Of a stretch of DNA of 64,000 nucleotides, positions 3,066-57,660 are shown in pieces (the stretch's first letter is position 1; each line of letters starts with the position of its first letter). Both the position numbers and the translations under genes were made by a program. The DNA is taken from contig CP092821.1 in assembly GCA_022530585.1 (NCBI GenBank), positions 198,222 to 262,221 on the forward strand. The letters are read 5' to 3'. This DNA comes from Candidatus Nealsonbacteria bacterium DGGOD1a. GTDB lineage: Bacteria > Patescibacteriota > Minisyncoccia > Minisyncoccales > UBA5738. The notes beneath the pieces were generated by a model, which saw nothing but the letters and a program-made list of their open reading frames with translations, ran no database searches and had not been told where the DNA came from.

Positions 3066-4127
3066 ATGGATTATTCCCAATTACTTGAAAAATTTCTCGC
3101 GGTTACGGTGCAAAAAGAAGCGTCCGATCTTCATATGTCGGCCGGATATCCTCCCATCATCCGCGTCAACGGCGAGTTGTGGGCGATTCCAAAAGAGCCC
3201 AATCTTTCGCCGCGCGACAGCCAGGGGCTGGCGTTTGCCATGATGACTCCCGAACAGCAGAACCAATTTTTGAAGTTCAAAGAAATCGATTTTTCCTACG
3301 CGTTTCAGGGCAAAGAGCGTTTCCGCACCAATATCTTTTTCCAGAAGGGATGCATATCGTGCGCTTTGCGGTTGATTCCGACCAAAATACGCACATTGAA
3401 AGAACTTAATCTGCCGCCGGTTTTGCAGAAATTCGTTGAAGCGGAACAGGGTTTCGTTCTGATCACCGGCCCGGCGTCGCACGGCAAGTCTACCACATTG
3501 GCGGCGTTTATCGACGCGATCAATCATTCGCGCTGCGATCATATAATTACCATCGAGGATCCGATCGAATACTTGTTTACCCCGGATGCTTCCGTGATCG
3601 AGCAAAGAGAGTTGAATTCCGACACCTATTCGTTTTCAATGGCGTTGCGGTCGGTTTTCCGCCAGGATCCGGATGTGATCATGATCGGTGAAATGCGCGA
3701 TGTGGAAACGATTTCCACGGCGCTGACCGCCGCGGAAACCGGCCATTTGGTGTTCGCGACATTGCACACGAATTCGGCTTCGCAAAGCATCCACCGCATC
3801 GTTGATTCGTTCCCGGCCGAACAGCAGGCGCAAATCCGCGCCCAGCTTTCCTCTTCGCTTTTGGGAATTGTATCCCAGCGGCTGATTTTATCGAACAAAG
3901 GAGGCATGGTGCCCGCCTGTGAAGTGCTTTTCAATAATTTTGCCGTGGGCAATCTTATCCGTGAAAACAAAATTCACGAAATTCCGCTGGTCATCGAAAC
4001 TTCTTCGAAGGACGGGATGATTTCGCTTAACAAATCGCTGGCCAATCTGGTGAAAAACGGCGACATTTCACTGGAAAAAGCGATATCGCATTCTTTGAAT
4101 CCGCAGGAGTTGGAAGCGTTAATCTAA
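3066..4127 (+). CDS. pilT: twitching-motility (retraction) ATPase PilT family
   Basis: 353 aa. Motifs ASDLH, Walker A variant GPASHGKST, IEDPIEY, RQDPDVIMIGEMRD and ATLHTNSA. Confidence 0.9.
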   Translation: MDYSQLLEKFLAVTVQKEASDLHMSAGYPPIIRVNGELWAIPKEPNLSPRDSQGLAFAMMTPEQQNQFLKFKEIDFSYAFQGKERFRTNIFFQKGCISCALRLIPTKIRTLKELNLPPVLQKFVEAEQGFVLITGPASHGKSTTLAAFIDAINHSRCDHIITIEDPIEYLFTPDASVIEQRELNSDTYSFSMALRSVFRQDPDVIMIGEMRDVETISTALTAAETGHLVFATLHTNSASQSIHRIVDSFPAEQQAQIRAQLSSSLLGIVSQRLILSNKGGMVPACEVLFNNFAVGNLIRENKIHEIPLVIETSSKDGMISLNKSLANLVKNGDISLEKAISHSLNPQELEALI

Positions 4128-4281
4128 AAAATTCGAAGCACGAATGTCGAATATCGAAACAAATTTAAAATTCGAATGTTCAAATGTCCGAAACGAAATT
4201 TAAAATTCGTTTTAAAATTTCGAAATTTGAAACTTCAGATTTGTTTCGATATTCGATATTCGATATTCGAAATCTGAAATT
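4128..4281. repeat. AT-rich palindromic intergenic module, 'TTCGAA/CGAATAT' dialect (P1)
   Basis: Fills the pilT-pilC spacer. The arms cgaatatcgaaacaaat and atttgtttcgatattcg are inverted copies. The left ~40 nt (aaaattcgaagcacgaa..tcgaata.tcgaaacaa) recur at 38880-38920. Confidence 0.6.
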
Positions 4282-5487
4282 ATGAGGTTCGTATATCAAG
4301 CCAGGTTGAAAAACGGGGAAGTCAAATCCGGGGTGATGGAGGCTGATTCGGTGCAGACCGCGGCCGAGATTTTGCGCCGCGACGATCTTTTCGTCACATT
4401 CCTGAAGAAAGAGGATCAGAGCCTCGCCAAAAGATTTCATTTTTTCGAGGGGGTTTCGGGAAAAGATGTCGCGATTTTTTCGCGCCAGCTGGCGGTGATG
4501 TTTCACGCCAATGTGTCGCTGGTCGAGTCTTTGCGGGTTATCGGCGCCCAGCTTGCCAACCAGAATTTTCGGGAAAAGATTCTAAAGATTTCCCAAGTCG
4601 TCGAGGCGGGATCGCCCTTGTCGGCCGCCTTGGCCAAATATCCGGATATTTTTTCGCCGTTTTTCGTCGCCATGGTGCGCGCCGGCGAGGTTTCGGGCAA
4701 CCTTTCGGAACAGTTCAATTATCTGGCCAATTATCTTGAAAAACAATATTATCTGGAAGGGAAAGTGAAGGGCGCCATGGTTTATCCGATCGTCATTCTG
4801 GTGGTGATGGTGGCCGTGCTGTTCCTTTTGGCCTATTTCGTGATGCCGAGTATGGTGGAAATGCTGACCAGCGCCGGCGTTGAATTGCCGCCGCTGACCC
4901 AGTTTGTGATTGCCGCCACGAATTTCATCCGGGGTATCGGGGGAGTTTTGGCATTGCTCGCGGCGATCGCTTCGGTGGTGGTCATCATGAGGGTTTCCCG
5001 GACGAAAAAAGGCAAAGAATTTTTTGATCGTCTGGCGCTGCGCATTCCAATATTCAACAATCTCACGAAAATGCTTTGCGTGAGCCGTTTCGCGGACAAT
5101 CTTTCCACGCTGATCACGGGCGGAATTCCGATCACCCAGGCTCTGGAAATTACCAGCACGATCGTCGGGAACACGGTTTACCGCGATGTGATTATGAAAA
5201 CCTGCGACGGGGTGCGCAAGGGGCAAACGATTTCTTCGATACTCTTTAATTATCCCGAACTCTTTGCGCCGATGTTTTCACAAATGATCCTCGTGGGCGA
5301 GCAAACCGGTTCGCTGGATAAAAGCTTGCTGGTTATGGTGTCGTTTTATGAAAAAGAGACGGAGCGGTCGATTGACAGTATGCTGATACTTATCGAACCG
5401 ATAATGATCATTGTCCTCGGTTTGGTCGTGGGCGGAGTGGTGGCGTCGGTGATGATACCGCTTTATTCGTCGATGGGAGCCGCCTAA
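4282..5487 (+). CDS. pilC: type IV pilus platform protein PilC/GspF family
   Basis: 401 aa with duplicated T2SSF-type domains, three hydrophobic TM segments, and the motifs LSxALxxYPxxFSPxFVAMVRAGEVSG and FAPMFSQMILVGEQTGSL. Confidence 0.9.
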   Translation: MRFVYQARLKNGEVKSGVMEADSVQTAAEILRRDDLFVTFLKKEDQSLAKRFHFFEGVSGKDVAIFSRQLAVMFHANVSLVESLRVIGAQLANQNFREKILKISQVVEAGSPLSAALAKYPDIFSPFFVAMVRAGEVSGNLSEQFNYLANYLEKQYYLEGKVKGAMVYPIVILVVMVAVLFLLAYFVMPSMVEMLTSAGVELPPLTQFVIAATNFIRGIGGVLALLAAIASVVVIMRVSRTKKGKEFFDRLALRIPIFNNLTKMLCVSRFADNLSTLITGGIPITQALEITSTIVGNTVYRDVIMKTCDGVRKGQTISSILFNYPELFAPMFSQMILVGEQTGSLDKSLLVMVSFYEKETERSIDSMLILIEPIMIIVLGLVVGGVVASVMIPLYSSMGAA

Positions 5488-6138: not shown

Positions 6139-6654
6139 ATGTTGATAGCCAATAAAAAAAACGGTTTGCCAAGGCAAGGTTTCACCCTTATTGAATTGCT
6201 GGTGGTTATCGCCATTATCGGCATTTTGGCCGGTATGGTGCTGGTGTCGATGGGCGGCGCGCGAGCCAAAGCCCGGGACGCCAAAAGAATGTCGGATATG
6301 CGCCAGCTGGTTTCGGCGCAGGAGATGTATTACGGCGAGGCGGATATGTATCATCCCGCGGCAAGCGGCATGGCTACGGGAACGATTTCTTATTTGGGTA
6401 ATGTTTACATGAGGATTCCGGCGGATCCGGGCGGACACGCGACTCAAATCGCGTGCGGAACCGCCGACAGCAAAGGCTATTATTGCGCGATTGCCAATAC
6501 CGCCAGTCCTGCTACCCGCCAGCAGTTTTGCTATTACGCTCGGTTGGAAGGCGAATCGAAATATTACACCGCGTCCCACGGCGGCAATGTTAAAAGAACC
6601 GCCGGCGTGGGTATTGCCGTGCCCACATTGGCCAATTGCAATACGGCCAATTAG
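6139..6654 (+). CDS. type IV major pilin, paralog 1 (prepilin with class III signal)
   Basis: The internal ATG at 6139 gives the leader [14 protein letters not shown]|[21 protein letters not shown], i.e. a G|F cleavage/methylation site followed by a hydrophobic helix. The longer ORF from 5968 would bury this signal. Confidence 0.85.
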
Positions 6655-6790: not shown

Positions 6791-7261
6791 ATGACAAATC
6801 GCAAAGAGGGTTTCACCCTTATTGAATTGCTGGTGGTTATCGCCATTATCGGCATTTTGGCCGGCATGGTGTTGGTGTCGATGGGCGGCGCGCGGCAAAA
6901 AGCCCGGGACGCCAAAAGAATGTCGGATATGCGCCAATTGCTTTCGGCGCAGGAGATGTATTACGGCGAAAAGGACGCGTATTATCCGGTATTGACGGAC
7001 AATAGCGTGGCTACGGGAACGATTGCCAACGGCACTACGGTTTATATGACTGTTCCGGTGGATCCGGGATCTCCTGCCAGTGCTTGCACTGCCGGTACCA
7101 CTGCCAATGTTTACTGCGCGATGGCAAACACCGGCGACCTGCAGAAGTTTTGCTATTTCGCGCGTTTGGAGGGCGAGGCGAAATATTACACCGCGTCCCA
7201 AGGCGGCAATGTCAAGAAGACCACAAAACCGACTTTGGCCACTTGCAATACGGCGGACTAG
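6791..7261 (+). CDS. type IV major pilin, paralog 2
   Basis: Leader MTNRKEG|[26 protein letters not shown]. The N-terminal ~55 codons and the C-terminal FCYxARLEGExKYYTASxGGNVK block are near-identical to paralog 1. The centre is divergent. Confidence 0.85.
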   Translation: MTNRKEGFTLIELLVVIAIIGILAGMVLVSMGGARQKARDAKRMSDMRQLLSAQEMYYGEKDAYYPVLTDNSVATGTIANGTTVYMTVPVDPGSPASACTAGTTANVYCAMANTGDLQKFCYFARLEGEAKYYTASQGGNVKKTTKPTLATCNTAD

Positions 7262-7282
7262 CCAAGGAATCGAACACAGAGA

Positions 7283-7306
7283 ATCGGCGAGTTTCGCCGA
7301 TTTTTC
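7283..7306 (+). terminator. intrinsic terminator after pilin 2
   Basis: atcggcga-gtt-tcgccgat forms an 8-bp stem followed by ttttt. Confidence 0.7.
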
Positions 7307-7359
7307 GTTACGCGGCCGTTGTGATAAAATAAATTCGTCGAATGATTTTTCCAAGATGT

Positions 7360-7461
7360 CTTGAATTATGAAACGCTTTGCATTCGGGGTCTATCCCTTG
7401 CGTAATCGCAAGGGTTAGACCCCTCTAAAGCATTTGCATTTAATGATTTCGCAATTCAAAG
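7360..7461. mobile_element. 102-bp palindromic MITE-like element, copy 1
   Basis: Terminal inverted repeats cttgaattatgaaacgctttg / gatttcgcaattcaaag. The central hairpin is ggggtctatcccttgcg-taatc-gcaagggttagacccc. A near-identical copy lies at 57395-57496. Confidence 0.6.
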
Positions 7462-7464
7462 AAT

Positions 7465-7626
7465 ATGGATATTTTATTTTGGTATGTTTTTGTTTCGATA
7501 TTCGCCGTCGGTATGATTGTCGGCAGTTTTTTGAATTGCTTGATCTGGCGATTGCATAATAATGAAAGCGCGCGGGGAGGGTTGACTTTGCAATTACTGT
7601 TTGCGCAATTAAAATACAGACAGTAA
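7465..7626 (+). pseudogene. orphan 5' fragment of prepilin peptidase gene (pilD remnant, 53 codons)
   Basis: MDILFWYVFVSIFAVGMIVGSFLNCLIWR... 7465-7574 matches 8621-8730 and includes a 73-nt exact run. After the homology ends it reads into unrelated sequence, with a stop at 7624-7626. Confidence 0.75.
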
Positions 7627-7642
7627 CACTATTTGTATTTGA

Positions 7643-8420
7643 ATGATACGGATGGAAAATAAAAAAATTGCATCATACGCTTTTATTGACGCTTCCAATC
7701 TGTTCTATGGCGGGGAGAAAAGTTTGGGTTGGAAAATAGATTACGAAAATCTTTTTGAATATTTAACGGAAAAATATTCAGTAAGAAAAGTTTTTTATTT
7801 TGGCGGCGCGGAAATCCATAAATTCAATTTTGACTATTTAAAAAATGATACCGTGCCGATTGCCGAATTGAAAAAATATCTTAAAAATGAAATCAAAACC
7901 GGCGGCAGTAAGTTAAATGAAGCGGATATGATATTATTAAGCCGGCATTTGCAGAGAGTTAAGTTCTATTCCAAGCTTGAGTCTTTTGGATATGAATTGC
8001 GGCTTAAACCCGTAAAATTATATTATCACGATAGTAGTACGGTTAAAAAAGCGAATTGCGATGTTGATATGGCCTTTTATTGAGTGCAATACCTCGGGGC
8101 TTTGCCCCGGGGTGCACCAAGAGGATTCCAAAGGGGTGCCCCCTTTGGTCGTCGTGCGGGGTTCATACCCCGCTCGACGAAATACATTTGGAAAATATAT
8201 TTTTGATTTGATGAAGGAAATGAACAATTTTGATAAAGCGATCATTCTTTCCGGCGATGGCGATTTTTTACCGGTTTTGAAATATTTGAAAGCGTGCGGC
8301 AAGGGAATAACCATATTATCCCGCGGCCCGAGAACCGCGCGCGAAATTCGGCAATTTGCCGGTTCTGATTTCAGGGATTTTACCAGGCTGGAAAGAATAT
8401 TGAAGTTTGACGGGAAATAA
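7643..8420 (+). pseudogene. NYN/LabA-like (PIN-related) nuclease-domain gene interrupted by a 118-nt insertion
   Basis: The N-part ends ...KANCDVDMAFY* at 8083. The C-part resumes as IFDLMKEMNNFDKAIILSGDGDFLPVLKYLK in another frame. Deleting 8081-8198 joins the two in frame. The motifs FIDASNL, CDVD and SGDGDF fit the NYN fold. Confidence 0.7.
8081..8198 (+). mobile_element. three-hairpin repeat element, copy A (inserted inside the NYN gene)
   Basis: Three hairpins: cggggc-ttt-gccccg, ccaaagggg-tgc-cccctttgg and gcgggg-ttcata-ccccgc. Linker aagaggattcc. Flanked by tat/tat. Copies at 18578-18690 and 55153-55267 share the same architecture. Confidence 0.6.
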
Positions 8421-8424
8421 ACTA

Positions 8425-8512
8425 CCGCGCGTCGTCAGGGTATTCTTGCGGAAAAGTTTGTTTCCCCGCCATTCATCCCCGGGGCAAAGCCCCGAGGTAT
8501 TCTGGCGGGTAA
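8425..8512 (-). repeat. partial/diverged copy D of the three-hairpin element (inverted relative to copy A)
   Basis: 8474-8498 is the exact reverse complement of the 25 nt aatacctcggggctttgccccgggg at 8088-8112. An atgaatggcgggg segment (cf. ttgatggcgggg) follows. The middle hairpin is missing. Confidence 0.4.
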
Positions 8513-8620
8513 ATAACAAAAAGCGGACATGCGAAATATCCGCTTCACGTTTAGTAAGCATATACTATCATTCGACAAGACATTGTCAATAGCGAGCGTA
8601 GCAAGCATTGTATAAACATT

Positions 8621-9460
8621 ATGGATTTTATTTTTTGGTATGTTTTTGTTTCGATATTCGCCGTCGGTATGATTGTCGGCAGTTTTTTGAATTGCTTGAT
8701 CTGGCGATCCTATAATAACGAAAGCGCGCTGGCCGGCCGGTCGTATTGCCCGAATTGCCGCCATAAACTGGCGTGGTTTGATTTGGTTCCTTTGTTCAGT
8801 TTTTTATTTTTGCGCGCCAAATGCCGTTATTGCGAAAAACCGATATCGTGGCAATATCCTTTGGTTGAGTTGGCAACCGGAATTCTTTTCGTCGCCGCGG
8901 CGCGGGCGTTCGCCTCCGGGATTTTTAACGGTTATCTGCCGGTGATTTCCGCGCTTGAGCTGTTGGCGTATTGGGCGATTTTGTCTTCGCTGGTTGTGGT
9001 GTTTGTCGCGGATTTGCGCTGGTATTTTATTCCCGACGGCGCGATCGCCGCGGGGATTTTTGGCGCCGCGGTTTTAACGATCGCGCGATTTTTTGAAAGC
9101 GATTTTATTTTTCACCGATTCGATTGGAACATAATTTTCAATCCGCTGTTGTCGGGGCTGTTCGCCGCGCTGTTTTTTCTGGCGATATTTTTGTTTTCGC
9201 GCGGAAAGTGGATCGGCTTTGGCGATGTCAAATACGCGCTTTTGATGGGATTGGCGCTTGGTTTTCCCGAGACTTTGCTGGCGCTGTTCCTTGCGAATTT
9301 TTTTGGTGCTATAATAGGTTTAGGATTGATCGCGGTTCGGCGCAAGAAGATGTCGTCGGAGATTCCTTTCGGGCCGTTTCTGGTTGGCGGAACGCTGGTC
9401 GCGCTGTTCTTTTCCGGTTCGATACTGAATTGGTATTTGTCGATAGGGATGCATAATTAA
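8621..9460 (+). CDS. pilD: prepilin peptidase / N-methyltransferase (A24 family)
   Basis: 279 aa. N-terminal Zn-finger-like CPNCRHKL...CRYCEKPISWQYPLVELATG, multiple TM helices, and the catalytic-Asp contexts ADLRWYFIPD and IGFGDVKYA. Confidence 0.9.
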   Translation: MDFIFWYVFVSIFAVGMIVGSFLNCLIWRSYNNESALAGRSYCPNCRHKLAWFDLVPLFSFLFLRAKCRYCEKPISWQYPLVELATGILFVAAARAFASGIFNGYLPVISALELLAYWAILSSLVVVFVADLRWYFIPDGAIAAGIFGAAVLTIARFFESDFIFHRFDWNIIFNPLLSGLFAALFFLAIFLFSRGKWIGFGDVKYALLMGLALGFPETLLALFLANFFGAIIGLGLIAVRRKKMSSEIPFGPFLVGGTLVALFFSGSILNWYLSIGMHN

Positions 9461-9576
9461 AAATTTAAAAATCAAAATGAAAAACGACAAATTAAAATAT
9501 TAAAATGTCGAATTTCAATTTTGTCATTTTCCATTTTGATTTTTACATTTTGCATTAAGCTTCATAAATAGGCGCG
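9461..9576. repeat. AT-rich palindromic intergenic module, 'AAATCAAAATG/TGACAA' dialect (P2)
   Basis: aaaaatcaaaatgaaaaacgacaaa ... ttttgtcattttccattttgattttt are long imperfect inverted arms spanning the whole pilD-to-minor-pilin spacer. Confidence 0.6.
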
Positions 9577-10823: not shown

Positions 10824-13088
10824 ATGAATAAAAAAACATTGTTGAATTCTGTTTTGGCGATTTCTTTGGCGGCGTTGCTCTTTGGAACGAATGTCGTTTC
10901 GGTCAATGCTTCGGCCACGAAAGCCAATTTGGAAATTTGCGCTTCCGCCGGCGAATGTATTTCAGGCAATTGCAATAGTTTGATTTGCTGTCCTTCGGGC
11001 ACTTGCGGATGGGGCGATGGAGTTAATTTTGTCCGCGAATGCGTTGCCAGCGGCCAAATTCGAGAAAATTCCTGGGCGAGTTTGATTTGCCGTTCCGGGA
11101 TATGGAAAGTGCGGTTGAATGGCTGGGGTTGCAATAATTCGGCTTGGGGCGGTTGCGATGAGGGATGGTGCCAAACTTTCGGCGATGCCGGTTTTTGCCG
11201 AAGTTGCGCTTTTGACTCTGGCTTGGCTCAAGGTTGTGCCAACGGTGAAGCATGTCCTTCGGGAACTTTATGCAATAATACGGTTTGCTGCCCTTCGGGT
11301 ACTTGCGGTTATGGAGACGGCCTTGTTTTTGGTCGCCAATGCGTGGCTAGCGGCGAAATAAGAGAAAATCTTTGGGGCCGGCAGATATGCCGCAACGGGG
11401 TTTGGAAGACCTTGGTGGGCGGCTGGGGTTGTGATGTTTTTGGGGAGTGCGAATCCGGAAGTTGCCAGGAGATTGGCGGTTACCATTATTGCATATCTTC
11501 CTTGCCGTTTTCTTCTGCGTACACTTCAACCGCTTACAATACGGGAATGTATTGCCAGGGGACTTGCCGTACTTGCGCGTCAGAGGGCAATGTTTGCGGC
11601 AATATGAGCGATAATTGCGGCAGTACAATTAATTGCGGCACATGCACCGGTGGCCAGAGTTGTTACAATAACCGTTGCGTTTTTTGTTTGCCGGGAACTG
11701 TTTCCGGGTGCAAAGTATGTAAATCCGATGGTAGTGCTTGGCAGGATGACGATGCCAAATGTTTAACCAACCAAATCTGTTCTTTGGGGGTTTGTATGGC
11801 CCGTAGTAGTTCCGATAGTCTCTACATTGTTTCAATTGCCATTGCCAACGGCGGCGCCGCCGGATACATCGATATCGGCGATACCATCAAAATTACTTTC
11901 AGCAAAGCCATCGATCCGGCTTCAATCAACAGCGGCCTTTCATCGGGAAGTTATGTTTCCGGCGTCTCTTCTTCCCAGATCGGCGGCGTGAGCGTTTCTT
12001 CGACGGGCATAGTGAATATTAACGGCATCGCCCTTTTTGATACGGGAACGGTGGACGATTCCGGCACTTTCACTTCCAAACTGGCGCTTGATTCCGCGGG
12101 GAAAGTTTTGACCGTAACACTGACGAGCGGCAATGCCATTAGAGTCGTCAGCGAGAATTATAGCGGTACCGTTCAGTTCGGAAATACGGTGAAAGATACC
12201 AACGGCAACGCAATGGCAAGCGATGCGGCCATCGATGATCCGATCGGAGGTTCCGCCGGCACGCTTTCCATTTCTTCCATTGCCATTACCAACGGCGGCG
12301 ATAAAAATTACATTGATATTGGCGATACTGTCAGAATCGCTTTTAGCGAGGCCATCGACCCGGCTTCAATCAGCGGCGGCCTTAATGAAGGCGATTATGT
12401 TTCCGGCGTTTCTTCTTCCCAGACCGGCGGCGTGAGCGTCTCTTCGACAGGCATCGTGACCATCAAAAATATCGCTGTTTTCGACGCTGGTTCGGTGGAT
12501 GATTCCGGCACTTTCACTTCCAAGCTGGCTTTGAGTTCCACCGGCAAAATTTTAACCATTACGCTGACCGGCGGTGGCAATATCAGGATTGCCAATGAGA
12601 GTTTCGGCAGTGCCAGCCAGATTGGCGGTACGGTGGAAAATGTCGATGGCAACGCGATGGAAGAAAAAACTTCCATCGGCAAGCCCGCGGGCGGGTTTGG
12701 GGAAGAAGGCAGTATCGGTGCCAGCGGCGACCTTTCCGTGCTTTATGCCCAGATTGAAGCCTTGAAAGCTGAAATTACGGCTTTGCAAAAACAGTTGGCG
12801 GCGATGGGGACAACGGGAACCGGTTCTTATTCTTGCGCCGGAATCACCAAATACCTTTATTACGGGATAACCGATCCGGAAGTTTCTTGTTTGCAAAATT
12901 TTTTGAAATCGCAAGGTTACGCGGTGTTGGCAACCGGTACCTACGATTTAGCCACTAAAGCCGCCGTCAAGCAGTTTCAGGAAAAATATGCTCGCGAGAT
13001 ACTTGCTCCTTACGGATTAACCTCGGGTTCGGGCAATGTGGGCAATGATACCCGCGGCAAGATTAATCAGCTTATGGCGGTAAAATAA
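10824..13088 (+). CDS. secreted Cys-rich surface protein: 2x Cys-knot-like module, 2x Ig-like (SbsA-type) repeat, coiled coil, C-terminal peptidoglycan-binding domain
   Basis: Sec signal (..VSVNA|SA). The module CxxGxxCxSGxxCNNTVCCPSGxCGxGD...C(V/R)ASG(Q/E)IREN..W occurs twice. A 146-aa repeat (IAIxNGGxxxYIDIGDTxxIxFSxAIDPASI) occurs twice. Coiled coil LSVLYAQIEALKAEITALQKQL. PG_binding_1-like segment GITDPEVSCLQNFLKSQGY...AVKQFQEKY. Confidence 0.75.
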   Translation: MNKKTLLNSVLAISLAALLFGTNVVSVNASATKANLEICASAGECISGNCNSLICCPSGTCGWGDGVNFVRECVASGQIRENSWASLICRSGIWKVRLNGWGCNNSAWGGCDEGWCQTFGDAGFCRSCAFDSGLAQGCANGEACPSGTLCNNTVCCPSGTCGYGDGLVFGRQCVASGEIRENLWGRQICRNGVWKTLVGGWGCDVFGECESGSCQEIGGYHYCISSLPFSSAYTSTAYNTGMYCQGTCRTCASEGNVCGNMSDNCGSTINCGTCTGGQSCYNNRCVFCLPGTVSGCKVCKSDGSAWQDDDAKCLTNQICSLGVCMARSSSDSLYIVSIAIANGGAAGYIDIGDTIKITFSKAIDPASINSGLSSGSYVSGVSSSQIGGVSVSSTGIVNINGIALFDTGTVDDSGTFTSKLALDSAGKVLTVTLTSGNAIRVVSENYSGTVQFGNTVKDTNGNAMASDAAIDDPIGGSAGTLSISSIAITNGGDKNYIDIGDTVRIAFSEAIDPASISGGLNEGDYVSGVSSSQTGGVSVSSTGIVTIKNIAVFDAGSVDDSGTFTSKLALSSTGKILTITLTGGGNIRIANESFGSASQIGGTVENVDGNAMEEKTSIGKPAGGFGEEGSIGASGDLSVLYAQIEALKAEITALQKQLAAMGTTGTGSYSCAGITKYLYYGITDPEVSCLQNFLKSQGYAVLATGTYDLATKAAVKQFQEKYAREILAPYGLTSGSGNVGNDTRGKINQLMAVK
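11029..11620 (+). repeat. ~590-nt block nearly identical to 15871-16462 (dispersed duplicate inside two different genes)
   Basis: At an offset of 4842 nt I see only a handful of substitutions: gatgttt/gatcttt, caggagatt/caaaagatt, ttctgcg/ttccgcg. The flanks diverge on both sides. Confidence 0.85.
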
Positions 13089-15653: not shown

Positions 15654-18509
15654 ATGATTAGACTTGGAAAAAATATAGGATTTGCCATTTTGATTTCCGT
15701 GCTTGCAATCGGCGGTTGTTGGCACTTTTTCAACTTTCAAAATGATTCCTTGGTTGAGGCTGACAGCTTGCAGGGTTGCGCCAGCGGTGAAGCCTGCCCT
15801 TCAGGTACGGCTTGCAACAATACGGTCTGTTGCCCGTCCGGTTATTGCGGTTGGGGCGATAATGTTTATTTTGTCCGCGAATGCGTTGCCAGCGGCCAAA
15901 TTCGAGAAAATTCCTGGGCGAGTTTGATTTGCCGTTCCGGGATATGGAAAGTGCGGTTGAATGGCTGGGGTTGCAATAATTCGGCTTGGGGCGGTTGCGA
16001 TGAGGGATGGTGCCAAACTTTCGGCGATGCCGGTTTTTGCCGAAGTTGCGCTTTTGACTCTGGCTTGGCTCAAGGTTGTGCCAACGGTGAAGCATGTCCT
16101 TCGGGAACTTTATGCAATAATACGGTTTGCTGCCCTTCGGGTACTTGCGGTTATGGAGACGGCCTTGTTTTTGGTCGCCAATGCGTGGCTAGCGGCGAAA
16201 TAAGAGAAAATCTTTGGGGCCGGCAGATATGCCGCAACGGGGTTTGGAAGACCTTGGTGGGCGGCTGGGGTTGTGATCTTTTTGGGGAGTGCGAATCCGG
16301 AAGTTGCCAAAAGATTGGCGGTTACCATTATTGCATATCTTCCTTGCCGTTTTCTTCCGCGTACACTTCAACCGCTTACAATACGGGAATGTATTGCCAG
16401 GGGACTTGCCGTACTTGCGCGTCAGAGGGCAATGTTTGCGGCAATATGAGCGATAATTGCGGCGGTACGATTTATTGCGGCGATTGTTCTTCCGGCCAAA
16501 CTTGCGCTTCCGGCCAATGCGTTTCTAGTTGTGTCAATGATTGTTCTTCCAGCGGCGCCAAGCAATGCGGCGGCAACGGTGTCCAAACCTGCGGCAATTA
16601 CGATGCCGACAGCTGTTTGGAATGGAGTGCGGCGGTTGCCTGTTCTTCGGGACAAATCTGTGCGTCCGGCCAATGCGTTTCTAGTTGTGTCAATGATTGT
16701 TCTTCCAGCGGCGCCAAGCAATGCGGCGGCAACGGTGTCCAAACCTGCGGCAATTACGATGCCGACAGCTGTTTGGAATGGAGCGCGGCGGTTGCCTGTT
16801 CTTCGGGACAAATCTGTGCGTCCGGCGTTTGCGTTGCCAGTAGCGACGATTGTACCGCCGAGTATTCCAAAAAATGTTATAACGGCAATGTTTATTGGTA
16901 TGATTCTTGCGGAGTTCGCGGCGATGTTTACCAGAATTGCGGTAATAGCGGGTCGACCTCAAATTATCAATGCGGCGGTAATTGGCTTCAGCAGGAAACC
17001 GTTGTTAGAGATTGCGCCGCCGGCGCGTGCACTCAAGATTCATCATGGAATAATGTTCAGGATTGCGCTTTGAGCGGCAAGATATGTAAAAATGGCGTTT
17101 GTATTGCCGCCTGTGTCAATGATTGTTCTTCTAGCGGCGCCAAGCAATGCGGCGGCAACGGTGTCCAAACCTGCGGCAATTACGATGCCGACAGCTGTTT
17201 GGAATGGAGCGCGGCGGTTGCCTGTTCTTCGGGACAAATCTGTGCGTCCGGCGTTTGCGGCGTTAAAGACGCGCTTGCGCCTGTAATTTCAGGTTTGGCG
17301 CCTTCGGGGAAAGCATACAATTCCAGCGTGGTTTTGGTTGCGACCACCAACGAGGCCGCGGATTGCCGTTATAGCTGGTATGATAGAAGTTTTGACCAGA
17401 TGACTTTACCGTTCAAAACTTCAAACAAGCTTTATCATTCGGCGCCGGTATCTTTGAGTTCTTACGGCAAGTACACTTATTATGTGCGTTGCAAAGACGC
17501 TTTCGGCAATGCCAATCAGATACCAAGCAAAATATCGTTTGATTATGTTTCGGCAACCGGTGCCGCCACTATTGCCGCGCCAAATATTCAAGCGTCTTCA
17601 ACTGTTTCATCCACCGCGGGTCTCGCGGATAAAACTCCGGCGGCGATTTCCGGTCTGGCGCCATCGGGCGCCATCACCAATGCCACGACCGTTATTTCTT
17701 GCGTTACCGGCGAAAAAGCGACTTGCAGGTACGATATTGCCGATACGGATTACGATTCGATGGAAAATACGATGGATACCGCCGCCGGCGTTCATCAGAG
17801 CAAAACAATAACATTGTCCAGTCCCGGAAATTACAATTACTATGTCCGTTGCAAAGACGCGGCGGGCAACAAGAACGCCGATTCGGTTAAAATCAATTTT
17901 GATTACGCGCCAGCTTCAAAAGTTCCGCCGGTAGTTTCCGAATTGCAACCTGCCAGCCCGGTTTATCAGAAAAGCGTAATGCTGACGGCGGTTACCGATA
18001 AGGCGGCTCAATGCCGCTGGTCAACCCGGGATCAGGATTTTGACGCGATGCCGGGACAATTTTCGGCAACCGATGGCCAAAACCAGCAAGCGATAGTGGA
18101 TTTAAACGATTACGGCCGATACGATTATTATGTGCGGTGCAAAGATGACGCGGGCGGCAAGGCCGCGGTTTCTTCGGTGATTAGTTTTGAATATAAAAAT
18201 CCGGAGCTGGAAGCCGCGGTTTTAAATGAAGTCGCCATTCCCGCTCAACAAGAACCTGTCGCTTGCGGAAAACCGGTTGCCGGCGCCAGCGACGGCGCTT
18301 GCAGCGCCGCGGTTGATTGTGTTTGCGATCCGGACTGCTCGGCCGGCGGCGGCGATGATCCTGATTGCGCCGCCGCGGCTGATAATTCAAGCGCCGCCGG
18401 CAATTTGTTGATTATCGCTATTCCGGTTGTCCTGATCGTTGTTGTCGTCGCGTTGATCGCGGCGGTGAAAAAAAGACGCGGCGGGGAAGACGGCGGCGAA
18501 GAAAACTAA
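15654..18509 (+). CDS. giant Cys-rich surface protein: shared N-terminal Cys modules, 52-aa Cys repeats, 3x Ig-like repeats, C-terminal TM anchor
   Basis: N-terminal signal/possible lipobox LAIGGC. Residues ~70-270 are near-identical to the 10824 protein. Four copies of C(V/x)NDCSSSGAKQCGGNGVQTCGNYDADSCLEWSAAVACSSGQICASG. Three repeats of SGLAPSG...CRY...Y.YYVRCKDxxGN. C-terminal LLIIAIPVVLIVVVVALIAAV-KKRRGGEDGGEEN. Confidence 0.75.
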   Translation: MIRLGKNIGFAILISVLAIGGCWHFFNFQNDSLVEADSLQGCASGEACPSGTACNNTVCCPSGYCGWGDNVYFVRECVASGQIRENSWASLICRSGIWKVRLNGWGCNNSAWGGCDEGWCQTFGDAGFCRSCAFDSGLAQGCANGEACPSGTLCNNTVCCPSGTCGYGDGLVFGRQCVASGEIRENLWGRQICRNGVWKTLVGGWGCDLFGECESGSCQKIGGYHYCISSLPFSSAYTSTAYNTGMYCQGTCRTCASEGNVCGNMSDNCGGTIYCGDCSSGQTCASGQCVSSCVNDCSSSGAKQCGGNGVQTCGNYDADSCLEWSAAVACSSGQICASGQCVSSCVNDCSSSGAKQCGGNGVQTCGNYDADSCLEWSAAVACSSGQICASGVCVASSDDCTAEYSKKCYNGNVYWYDSCGVRGDVYQNCGNSGSTSNYQCGGNWLQQETVVRDCAAGACTQDSSWNNVQDCALSGKICKNGVCIAACVNDCSSSGAKQCGGNGVQTCGNYDADSCLEWSAAVACSSGQICASGVCGVKDALAPVISGLAPSGKAYNSSVVLVATTNEAADCRYSWYDRSFDQMTLPFKTSNKLYHSAPVSLSSYGKYTYYVRCKDAFGNANQIPSKISFDYVSATGAATIAAPNIQASSTVSSTAGLADKTPAAISGLAPSGAITNATTVISCVTGEKATCRYDIADTDYDSMENTMDTAAGVHQSKTITLSSPGNYNYYVRCKDAAGNKNADSVKINFDYAPASKVPPVVSELQPASPVYQKSVMLTAVTDKAAQCRWSTRDQDFDAMPGQFSATDGQNQQAIVDLNDYGRYDYYVRCKDDAGGKAAVSSVISFEYKNPELEAAVLNEVAIPAQQEPVACGKPVAGASDGACSAAVDCVCDPDCSAGGGDDPDCAAAADNSSAAGNLLIIAIPVVLIVVVVALIAAVKKRRGGEDGGEEN
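16512..16823 (+). repeat. tandem 156-nt (52-codon) coding repeat, two near-identical units; third unit at 17112-17258
   Basis: ggccaatgcgtttctagttgtgtcaatgattgttcttccagcggcgccaagcaatgcggc... restarts at 16668. A related module lies in the 53119 gene. Confidence 0.85.
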
Positions 18510-57394: not shown

Positions 57395-57496
57395 CTTTGA
57401 ATTACGAAACGCTTTGTATTTGGGGTCTATCCCTTGCGTAATCGCAAGGGTTAGACCCCTTCAAGGCATTTGAATTCAATGGTTTCGTAATTCAAG
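57395..57496. mobile_element. 102-bp palindromic MITE-like element, copy 2
   Basis: ctttgaattacgaaacgctttgtatttggggtctatcccttgcgtaatcgcaagggttagaccccttcaaggcatttgaattcaatggtttcgtaattcaag. Most positions are identical to 7360-7461. Confidence 0.6.
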
Positions 57497-57660
57497 ATTA
57501 TATTGATTGTTTGAATTGCTCGACTTTTAATTGATTTTAACTCTTTTTTCGTTTATAGTATATCCGTATCGCGCCAAAAACTGATTTTTGGATGGGAGAT
57601 ATGCAAGCATGATTTAAATCGTATTTAAGTACGATTTAAATATAGTGAATATATTTTTTT

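Follow-up and report, generated by a model that had tools for sequence, protein, structure and literature searches.

The pilD locus and its duplicated 5' end

The locus described here lies in a 64,000-nt stretch of contig CP092821.1 of Candidatus Nealsonbacteria bacterium DGGOD1a; this whole stretch is called the window, and all positions are numbered within it. The window contains the prepilin peptidase gene pilD, the 5' end of which is present twice, and between the two copies a cassette of an interrupted NYN/LabA-like nuclease gene and a small-RNA gene. Repeat finding defined a direct repeat with two copies of 119 nt each on the plus strand, at 7458-7576 and 8614-8732, with a start-to-start spacing of 1156 nt. 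In a pairwise alignment with direct count the copies differ at ten positions (4, 6, 14, 17, 19, 96, 97, 98, 106 and 117), all of them among the first 19 or the last 24. The exact core of 76 nt (7477-7552, twin at 8633-8708, plus strand) has a probability of 1.6e-4 under random placement of ten mismatches, and the mismatch positions suggest that it was the zone of strand exchange. The upstream copy heads an orphan pilD stub, an open reading frame (ORF) of 53 codons at 7465-7626 (plus strand) with a weak PF06750 match over residues 15-35, which is annotated in other assemblies as well. The downstream copy heads the intact pilD gene with its hybrid 5' end, an ORF of 279 aa at 8621-9460 (plus strand). 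Its product matched PF06750 with 108.3 bits (2e-31) and PF01478 with 38.1 bits (2e-9), both above the Pfam cut-offs (8621-9457); the A24 N-terminal and the A24 catalytic domain in a single unbroken ORF, together with 92% identity to annotated prepilin peptidases, identify it as PilD. An earlier sequence-only reading had described a pilD 5' end occurring twice over ~110 nt, an exact run of 73 nt, an orphan stub of 53 codons and a complete downstream gene. This picture was recovered, with a repeat of 119 nt and an exact run that is slightly longer than noted.

Five assemblies share the arrangement of stub, cassette and pilD with 99-100% identity (GCA_029216075.1, JGI 3300019861, JGI 3300001389 with two contigs, and two ENA assemblies), and the genome paper states that Illumina and PacBio data were used to close the source genome. 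Since the arrangement recurs in independent assemblies and long reads closed the genome, the duplication is real and no assembly chimera. The probability of an artefact, either a chimeric join or a collapsed repeat, is negligible. One k91 assembly (JGI 3300001389) does break within the interval, at 8121-8164, but this break falls in a polymorphic miniature inverted-repeat transposable element (MITE), away from the repeats; both repeat junctions, for which read support had been called for, are spanned in four or more independent assemblies made from different samples with different assemblers.

An empty site and two reciprocal hybrids

Within the protein collection, the PilD of the window is most similar to P0121 (92% identity), which is encoded on contig L102 of a Minisyncoccales metagenome-assembled genome (MAG). 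L102 has the gene order of the window, namely pilB, response regulator, pilT, pilC, two pilins, pilD and minor pilins, but the second pilin directly adjoins pilD, and no NYN gene lies between them. The junction of this empty site reads AAAGAATATGGATATTTTATTTTGG ... GGCGATCCTATAATAACGAAAGC. The comparison shows the 1,156-bp unit of DGGOD1a to be acquired DNA, inserted at an otherwise empty site, just as the sequence-only reading had claimed; the alternative that all relatives share the arrangement fails with L102.

DNA alignment with the empty site of L102 and L103 divided both repeat copies into native and foreign parts. The sequence upstream of the stub and its first ~20 nt (ATGGATATTTTATTTTGG, encoding MDILFW) match the empty site, and the MDILFW start is found in the nearest PilD relatives P0121-P0126, P0131 and P0242. 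The right part of the stub, GATTGCATAATAATGAAAGCGCGCGGGGAGGG (RLHNNESARGG), is homologous to the empty site over 26 nt (22/26) and unrelated thereafter; its portion TTGCATAATAAT (RLHNNESA) departs from L102 and L103 as well as from P0121-P0126. The intact gene has the opposite composition. It begins with ATGGATTTTATTTTTTGG (MDFIFW), unlike the empty site, and is preceded by unrelated sequence, a foreign spacer at 8590-8613 (plus strand) from the cassette edge to the surrogate pilD start that has no counterpart at the empty site. Its right part (GATCCTATAATAACGAAAGCGCGCTGGCCGG, RSYNNESALAGRSY) matches the empty site, and the IWRSY of the full gene is shared by the five nearest PilD relatives (P0121, P0242, P0122, P0123 and P0125). 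MDFIFW and R[FL]H are confined to more distant natural PilD lineages. The stub is thus native-core-foreign and the working pilD foreign-core-native, two hybrid repeats around an identical core that resemble the left and right attachment (att) sites attL and attR of an integrated element. Because the copies are reciprocal hybrids, the incoming DNA must already have carried a diverged pilD 5' fragment. The earlier proposal of a surrogate 5' end which keeps the target functional is upheld by these copies and by the intact pilD.

The NYN nuclease gene

A leader of the cassette (7577-7642, plus strand) extends from the repeat to the NYN start and includes, as a mere consensus match, the promoter-like TTGCAA-16-TAAAAT at 7588-7615. 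The nuclease gene follows in two parts on the plus strand and is a pseudogene in DGGOD1a: the N-terminal part at 7643-8081 (PF01936, 31.5 bits) and the C-terminal part with the stop codon at 8209-8420 (PF01936, 33.2 bits; tblastn 8202-8417). Each half passes the Pfam cut-off of 24.2 bits; the rejoined protein reaches 70.8 bits and aligns straight through the break (DVDMAFY/LMKE) with ~70%-identical homologs of 209 aa. The GC content of the gene is ~30% versus ~50% in its neighbours. At E <= 1e-5, 2,974 homologs of the rejoined protein were obtained, of which the best 120 have ~209 aa and 65-74% identity; the homologs spread over many phyla of the candidate phyla radiation (CPR), among the named ones Parcubacteria, Kuenen-, Wolfe-, Nealson-, Brenner- and Daviesbacteria.

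An AlphaFold2 model of the homolog P0002 (predicted local distance difference test score, pLDDT, 90.2) has a PIN-like fold. Its top match in the PDB was the LabA-like protein 2qip (VPA0982, E = 2.4e-7), with a weaker match to the T5 D15 flap endonuclease, and it carries an inserted pair of long helices (~45-residue insertion, residues 65-107). A set of 119 sequences shows no variation at the aspartates of the acidic FIDASN and SGDGDF motifs. By Pfam match, fold and acidic residues the cargo protein is a bona fide member of the NYN/LabA-like family, the window copy being interrupted. Scans of the NCBIfam and PHROGs collections gave only partial or sub-threshold matches to it. In PADLOC-DB 2.0 the protein partially matched PDLC01154 'NYN' over its C-terminal third only (E = 5e-11 to 9e-9) and weakly resembled the defence candidate HEC-09 over only ~65 residues.

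A small RNA convergent to the nuclease gene

Related cassettes were collected in a family scan with one genome per species, in which 333 encoding stretches, from as many species genomes, were found and 80 kept for locus comparison; the latter are mostly from MAGs labelled as Patescibacteria or CPR, with a few other bin labels. Homology between related cassettes in unrelated contexts starts within a few nucleotides of the NYN ATG and ends 72-95 nt past the stop codon, at a -35 box. On the basis of these sequence limits, the conserved unit is a segment of ~0.72 kb that consists of the NYN ORF and a small-RNA gene, with neither terminal repeats nor a second protein gene.

In the window the small-RNA gene occupies 8509-8558 on the minus strand and comprises the 5' sequence ACUAAACGUG, an 11-bp hairpin (8546-8520) with an invariant U.G wobble and a U-run; hairpin and T-run are predicted as terminator-like. 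The predicted transcript of ~45 nt spans ~8555 to ~8512, convergent to the NYN gene. Its promoter of the sigma-70 type, TTGACA-16-TG-TAGTAT (8562-8589, minus strand), is the best promoter-like site within 7200-8800 and forms the right edge of the conserved cassette. The window and 78 of the 80 loci have this conserved module beyond the NYN stop codon, and variant forms occur in the remaining two. On the strand opposite to NYN it reads TTGACA, 16-18 nt, an extended -10 box (TGnTAnAAT), ~7 nt, ACTAAACGTG, the 11-bp hairpin and, up to the NYN stop codon, a T-run. The -35/-10 architecture is located at the same place in nearly all of 79 cassettes. When 79 distinct sequences were aligned without gaps, 99.9% of the helix cells were paired and nine of the eleven pairs had compensatory changes (226 cells, reached by 0 of 500 shuffles), while slid control helices were only 32-54% paired. 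Among the cells are 126 G.U pairs, including the invariant U.G, and no A.C pair. The helix is thus valid on the minus strand alone, which makes the element an RNA transcribed convergently to NYN.

A covariance model of this RNA, R1, had a single match in the 64-kb window, at 8509-8558 on the minus strand (62.7 bits, E = 8.5e-11), and also matched each tested NYN locus outside its training set, but no NYN-free locus. The small RNA, equipped with its own promoter, hence co-occurs strictly with the nuclease gene, in the adjacency that characterizes toxin-antitoxin (TA) modules with an RNA antitoxin (type I or type III). A scan of the window against Rfam 15 returned one tRNA as the only gathering-level match; when 7200-8700 was scanned permissively, nothing overlapped the small RNA except SNORD44 (8529-8579, 17.9 bits versus a gathering threshold of 40, E = 1.3), which we took as a chance match. 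The RNA is previously undescribed and has no Rfam family. A search of the window for a trans target of the conserved 5' decamer matched its own gene only. At the other end of the cassette, 38 of 76 loci have a -10 box, often in the extended form TGnTAnAAT, whose end lies 5-9 nt upstream of the NYN ATG, versus 6% in background sequence; such closeness to the start codon suggests a leaderless NYN mRNA. DnaA-box cores (TTATCCAC / GTGGATAA) were observed 0-60 nt beyond the small-RNA -35 box, outside the right edge of the cassette, in six of 76 loci, including L025, L026, L027, L029, L035 and L063 (background ~0.0075 per 120 nt); they are absent from the window copy.

Later inserts in the cassette

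The NYN ORF is split by a MITE-like insert of 127 nt with three hairpins (8082-8208, z = -7.9), flanked by ATT or, imperfectly, by TTTTATT/TTTGATT. Two ENA contigs of a sister strain, L106 and L107, with flanks of 99% identity, have the same stub and the same repeats, and their ~1.03-kb content is that of the window with no further genes, yet NYN is intact with 213 aa. The insert has no counterpart there: at its position GGCCTTTTATT is directly followed by TGATGAAGG, and the MITE-free NYN junction is GGCCTTTTATTTGATGAAGG. Since the sister strain has the same locus with an intact NYN, the break is a recent, strain-specific MITE-like insertion. Of the earlier statement that the interval carries only a broken NYN gene and small repeats, the split of NYN is correct, but the conserved small-RNA gene was missed; it is unbroken in DGGOD1a although NYN is broken. 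The k91 assembly that breaks inside the 127-nt insert hints at a polymorphism in the population.

A second small palindromic insert reaches from the NYN stop to the small-RNA terminator (8421-8512) and is also present in L106 and L107. In other cassettes the terminator lies within a few nucleotides of the NYN stop codon, in contrast to both strains with this insert. The two inserts bracket the C-terminal half of NYN and have a perfect 25-nt inverted repeat in common, AATACCTCGGGGCTTTGCCCCGGGG, in opposite orientation (8477-8501 versus 8088-8112). An interpretation as two copies of one element was rejected, because only this 25-nt hairpin is shared.

Distribution and flanking repeats of the cassette family

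Direct repeats around the cassette are not restricted to pilD. With a minimum of 30 bits and a range of 400 nt to either side, same-strand repeats were found at 16 of 61 cassettes, versus 4 of 213 controls, which were equal-sized segments shifted within the same loci (Fisher p = 1.5e-8), a ~14-fold enrichment. The repeats have 25-160 nt and 80-100% identity, are usually 730-1050 nt apart and differ at every locus. Three types occur: 5' ends of the downstream gene, beginning 1-7 nt before the ATG (L097, L044, L035 and the window), 3' ends of the upstream gene (L101; rplL-like in L028 and L042) and intergenic repeats (L033, L065, L084). The left edge of the cassette is often located exactly at the junction of host promoter and start codon. 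At L008 the repeat is a whole methyltransferase gene of ~760 nt: complete genes at 3233-3898 and 4805-5467 bracket the cassette, with ~65% identity of the proteins and 83% of the DNA (first 300 nt). A 27-nt spacer downstream of the methyltransferase genes is doubled there as well, which places NYN exactly at the start position of the next gene.

Differences between coding repeat copies fall mainly on third codon positions (8 of 13 in L101, 4 of 6 in L097, 20 of 31 in L056) and are mostly synonymous. Both copies therefore evolved as working genes before they were brought together. As judged from these sequences, the family repeats agree with a transfer of cassettes together with adjoining sequence from a diverged donor, like that at pilD.

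In the MAG to which L102 belongs, a 68%-identical cassette lies at another locus, after an AAA_14/DUF4143 gene. One MAG has two diverged copies, L035 and L063, and the best cross-context pair of cassettes is 89% identical. A scan for further copies of the cassette lineage of the window yielded only the contig already known. The L035 copy lies at a gene for SepCysS (O-phosphoseryl-tRNA:Cys-tRNA synthase; L035 3128-4285, also in L109-L112), by which these Patescibacteria MAGs encode an enzyme ~60% identical to the archaeal ones; the region just upstream of it is variable and holds Fic, AAA_14/DUF4143, NUDIX or the NYN cassette. In IMG/VR only one of 2.9 million viral contigs encodes a relative, hence phages are not the main carrier of the cassette. 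This contig, L105 (IMGVR_UViG_3300011999_000020), has at 4001-4682 a NYN gene of 55% identity with a small RNA at 37 bits, located between the genes for a DNA methylase and an N-acetylmuramoyl-L-alanine amidase and oriented opposite to both. Literature searches on NYN in combination with CPR, mobile elements or homing gave no description of the cassette, nor does the genome paper of DGGOD1a mention it.

Origin of the insertion

We consider it probable that a nuclease/small-RNA cassette which circulates horizontally among CPR/Patescibacteria came with a foreign pilD 5' fragment and recombined in the core, with pilD being kept. The cassette would have arrived embedded in DNA of a different pilD lineage that carried a pilD 5' fragment of ~119 nt, and homologous recombination of the host within the 76-nt identical core would have joined this DNA to the resident pilD. 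Two routes may be envisaged. One is a Campbell-type integration of a small circle of the cassette and one pilD fragment, a circle that may have originated from repeat-by-repeat excision or from imprecise excision elsewhere. The other is an allelic exchange with linear DNA of a donor already bearing the duplication. On either route the identical core would represent a heteroduplex or conversion tract, the integration step at pilD would proceed with no dedicated recombinase, and the products would be a hybrid orphan stub upstream and a hybrid complete pilD downstream, by which pilD survives. In DGGOD1a alone, the 127-nt MITE-like insertion later inactivated NYN and left the small-RNA gene intact. 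Horizontal spread together with donor flanks may also account for the flanking duplications throughout the family.

Several points weigh against this reconstruction. A circle or donor junction, with the foreign left part, the core and the foreign right part, should read ATTATGGATTTTATTTTTTGG ... GGCGATTGCATAATAATGAAAGC then GGGGAGGGTTGAC; a single exact-pattern scan of metagenome contigs found none, and so circular and linear allelic transfer are indistinguishable. The closest relative differs at four positions from the 76-nt core that is identical in both copies, which requires a heteroduplex or gene-conversion tract, or a donor with a very close core. A loss of the cassette from L102 by repeat-by-repeat recombination, instead of a gain in DGGOD1a, is a formal possibility. 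About 70% of the cassettes have no detectable flanking repeat, and some of the short repeats may be only a shared promoter-plus-ATG architecture. At L035, where SepCysS relatives lack NYN at the site, the native/foreign pattern is a mosaic over few sites, and the simple pattern of pilD was not replicated.

A tandem duplication that arose locally at the pilD start, with subsequent ordinary drift of the paralogs around an unrelated resident NYN gene, would at first sight suit a locus with common tandem paralogs such as the pilins at 6178-6356 and 6809-6987, and whole paralog-like genes do flank NYN in L008 and L056. It is nevertheless highly improbable: an empty site exists, the mismatches between the copies are clustered, the derived 5' end sits on the functional pilD while the stub has kept the ancestral end, and NYN combines a foreign GC content with a patchy cross-phylum distribution. 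Nearly as improbable is the remnant of an integrase-type element, a prophage or island that targeted the pilD 5' end and lost its integrase and most of its cargo. Site-specific integration into a gene should leave hybrid attL/attR-like repeats around an identical core, such as those at pilD, and one phage-like contig carries the cassette. However, the sister strains hold the same short content with an intact NYN, and at least 16 independent repeat-bearing loci have repeats, different at each locus and 730-1050 nt apart, that enclose only NYN and the RNA gene. A common att core across hosts is thus absent. No integrase, recombinase or transposase domain of Pfam was recorded within ~6 kb on either side of the cassette; the repeats enclose just the NYN gene, the small-RNA gene and small repeats, and related cassettes of other contexts share no recombinase either, but only the NYN ORF plus the RNA gene. 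A single relative in 2.9 million viral contigs speaks against such an element as well. The decayed integrating element that the sequence-only reading had proposed finds no support in these results. An insertion sequence (IS) was dropped as an explanation for want of terminal repeats and a transposase, and an integron cassette because attC is missing; the repeat lengths of 25 to ~760 nt do not agree with IS or MITE either.

Somewhat less improbable, but still unlikely, is an autonomous mobile element, in which the NYN nuclease, possibly with the RNA, cuts a target and inserts the cassette, leaving long, variable duplications that then diverge. The 14-fold enrichment of repeats around the cassette would agree with it, as would the perfect or near-perfect ones (31 nt in L065, 26 nt in L030, 158 nt at 98.7% in L084), the different loci of the cassette in related genomes, its left edge exactly at host promoter/start positions and a predicted fold similar to a flap endonuclease with an inserted helical pair. 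On the other hand, the copies in the window are reciprocal native/foreign hybrids and not two native copies, coding repeats differ mainly at synonymous sites, terminal repeats are missing, and the copy number is low, with no near-identical copies seen at different sites and 89% identity in the best cross-context pair. NYN domains are, moreover, mostly RNases (PMC5499597). The related and wider notion of NYN and the ~45-nt RNA as a CPR-specific class of recombinase-less mobile elements or a homing-like system, which promotes its own insertion at gene starts and ends, appears slightly more plausible but doubtful; if true, the long variable duplications which spare the neighbouring genes would be its signature.

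For the function of the cassette, a selfish, TA-like or defence-like nuclease/RNA module may be proposed. The proposal follows from a PIN-like nuclease that is strictly paired with a convergent RNA, the patchy spread across phyla, the retention of the RNA gene beside a broken nuclease gene in one strain and the weak similarity to a defence candidate. Unlike the RNA of type III TA systems, whose tandem repeats are processed by the toxin, the RNA is a single hairpin unit and has no tandem repeats.

Other repeats in the neighbourhood

The spacer between the second pilin and pilD contains a palindromic MITE-like element of ~100 nt (7361-7462), which is native to the site and outside the cassette. 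A second copy with 89% identity lies at 57397-57497, upstream of a tRNA-Ser gene. Both copies fold as a long hairpin (z = -6.3 and -10.0) and have the termini TTGAATTAYGAAAC...GTTTCGYAATTCAA; the pilD site of L102 has the same termini at ~4860-4995 with a different interior. Upstream of pilD, the two pilin genes form a tandem pair of paralogs whose 5' ends (6178-6356 / 6809-6987) are 91% identical and whose 3' segments (6520-6600 / 7142-7222) are 85% identical. A 44-nt AT-rich inverted repeat with 84% complementarity (9448-9563) is located in the spacer that separates pilD from the next pilin-like gene. Further downstream, a segment of ~640 nt (~11003-11639) in the gene of a 754-aa Big_5/PG-binding protein recurs ~4.8 kb downstream, at 15845-16481, with 98.7% identity.

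Comparison with known systems

The mobile DNA of CPR/Patescibacteria is poorly known, and their genomes are tiny. The pilD locus provides a natural series of three states, in which the site is empty, filled with an intact cassette or filled with a broken one, and is a case of a very small cassette that enters genes and leaves them intact, with no integrase. It also revealed a strongly supported, undescribed small RNA, which hundreds of CPR species have in strict linkage with a conserved NYN nuclease, a pairing that is a candidate TA-like or defence module and may also represent a new mobility mechanism.

Integration into genes is well established for the lambdoid phage 21 and e14, which integrate in icd of E. 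coli, and many elements integrate at the 3' ends of tRNA genes. As in icd, a diverged copy of the target gene end came in at pilD, recombination probably took place in an identical core, the gene stayed intact and an orphan hybrid fragment was left. In contrast to icd, it is the 5' end that is duplicated at pilD, an integrase is absent from the locus, from the sister strains and from every member of the cassette family, and the unit has only ~1.1 kb with locus-specific duplications and no dedicated att site. Campbell-type integration by a single crossover leaves a direct duplication with reciprocal hybrid copies as well, and host recombination suffices for it. It is, however, known mainly from plasmids and laboratory constructs, a natural circle below 1.2 kb was not observed at pilD, and linear allelic transfer from a donor with the duplication gives the same product. 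The free-standing homing endonuclease genes of phages resemble the cassette as single nuclease genes between host genes that are polymorphic in presence at a site and spread along with flanking donor markers, but NYN stands outside the known homing families and homing leaves no duplication of the target.

Type I TA systems with a convergent antisense RNA at the 3' end are exemplified by txpA/RatA and bsrG/SR4 of B. subtilis. The cassette shares with them a protein gene and, just past its stop codon, a convergent small RNA with a strong promoter of its own, as well as compactness, patchy distribution and horizontal spread; in the window the RNA gene is kept and the protein gene is broken. The known type I toxins are small membrane peptides, whereas the cassette encodes a NYN nuclease of 209 aa, and its RNA has only ~45 nt and ends at the stop codon. 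With the LabA-like NYN proteins (PF01936; 2qip) the CPR subfamily has the Pfam match, the structural match and the conserved FIDASN and SGDGDF motifs in common. In the survey of the PIN superfamily LabA-like proteins are described only as factors of RNA processing and degradation, often with OST-HTH (PMC5499597); the CPR subfamily differs by its two-helix insertion, by the lack of the OST-HTH partner domain common in LabA-like proteins and by the constant pairing with a small RNA. Compared with all these systems, what is new is that an insertion with a surrogate gene end lacks an integrase and that its carrier is an undescribed cassette of nuclease and small RNA.

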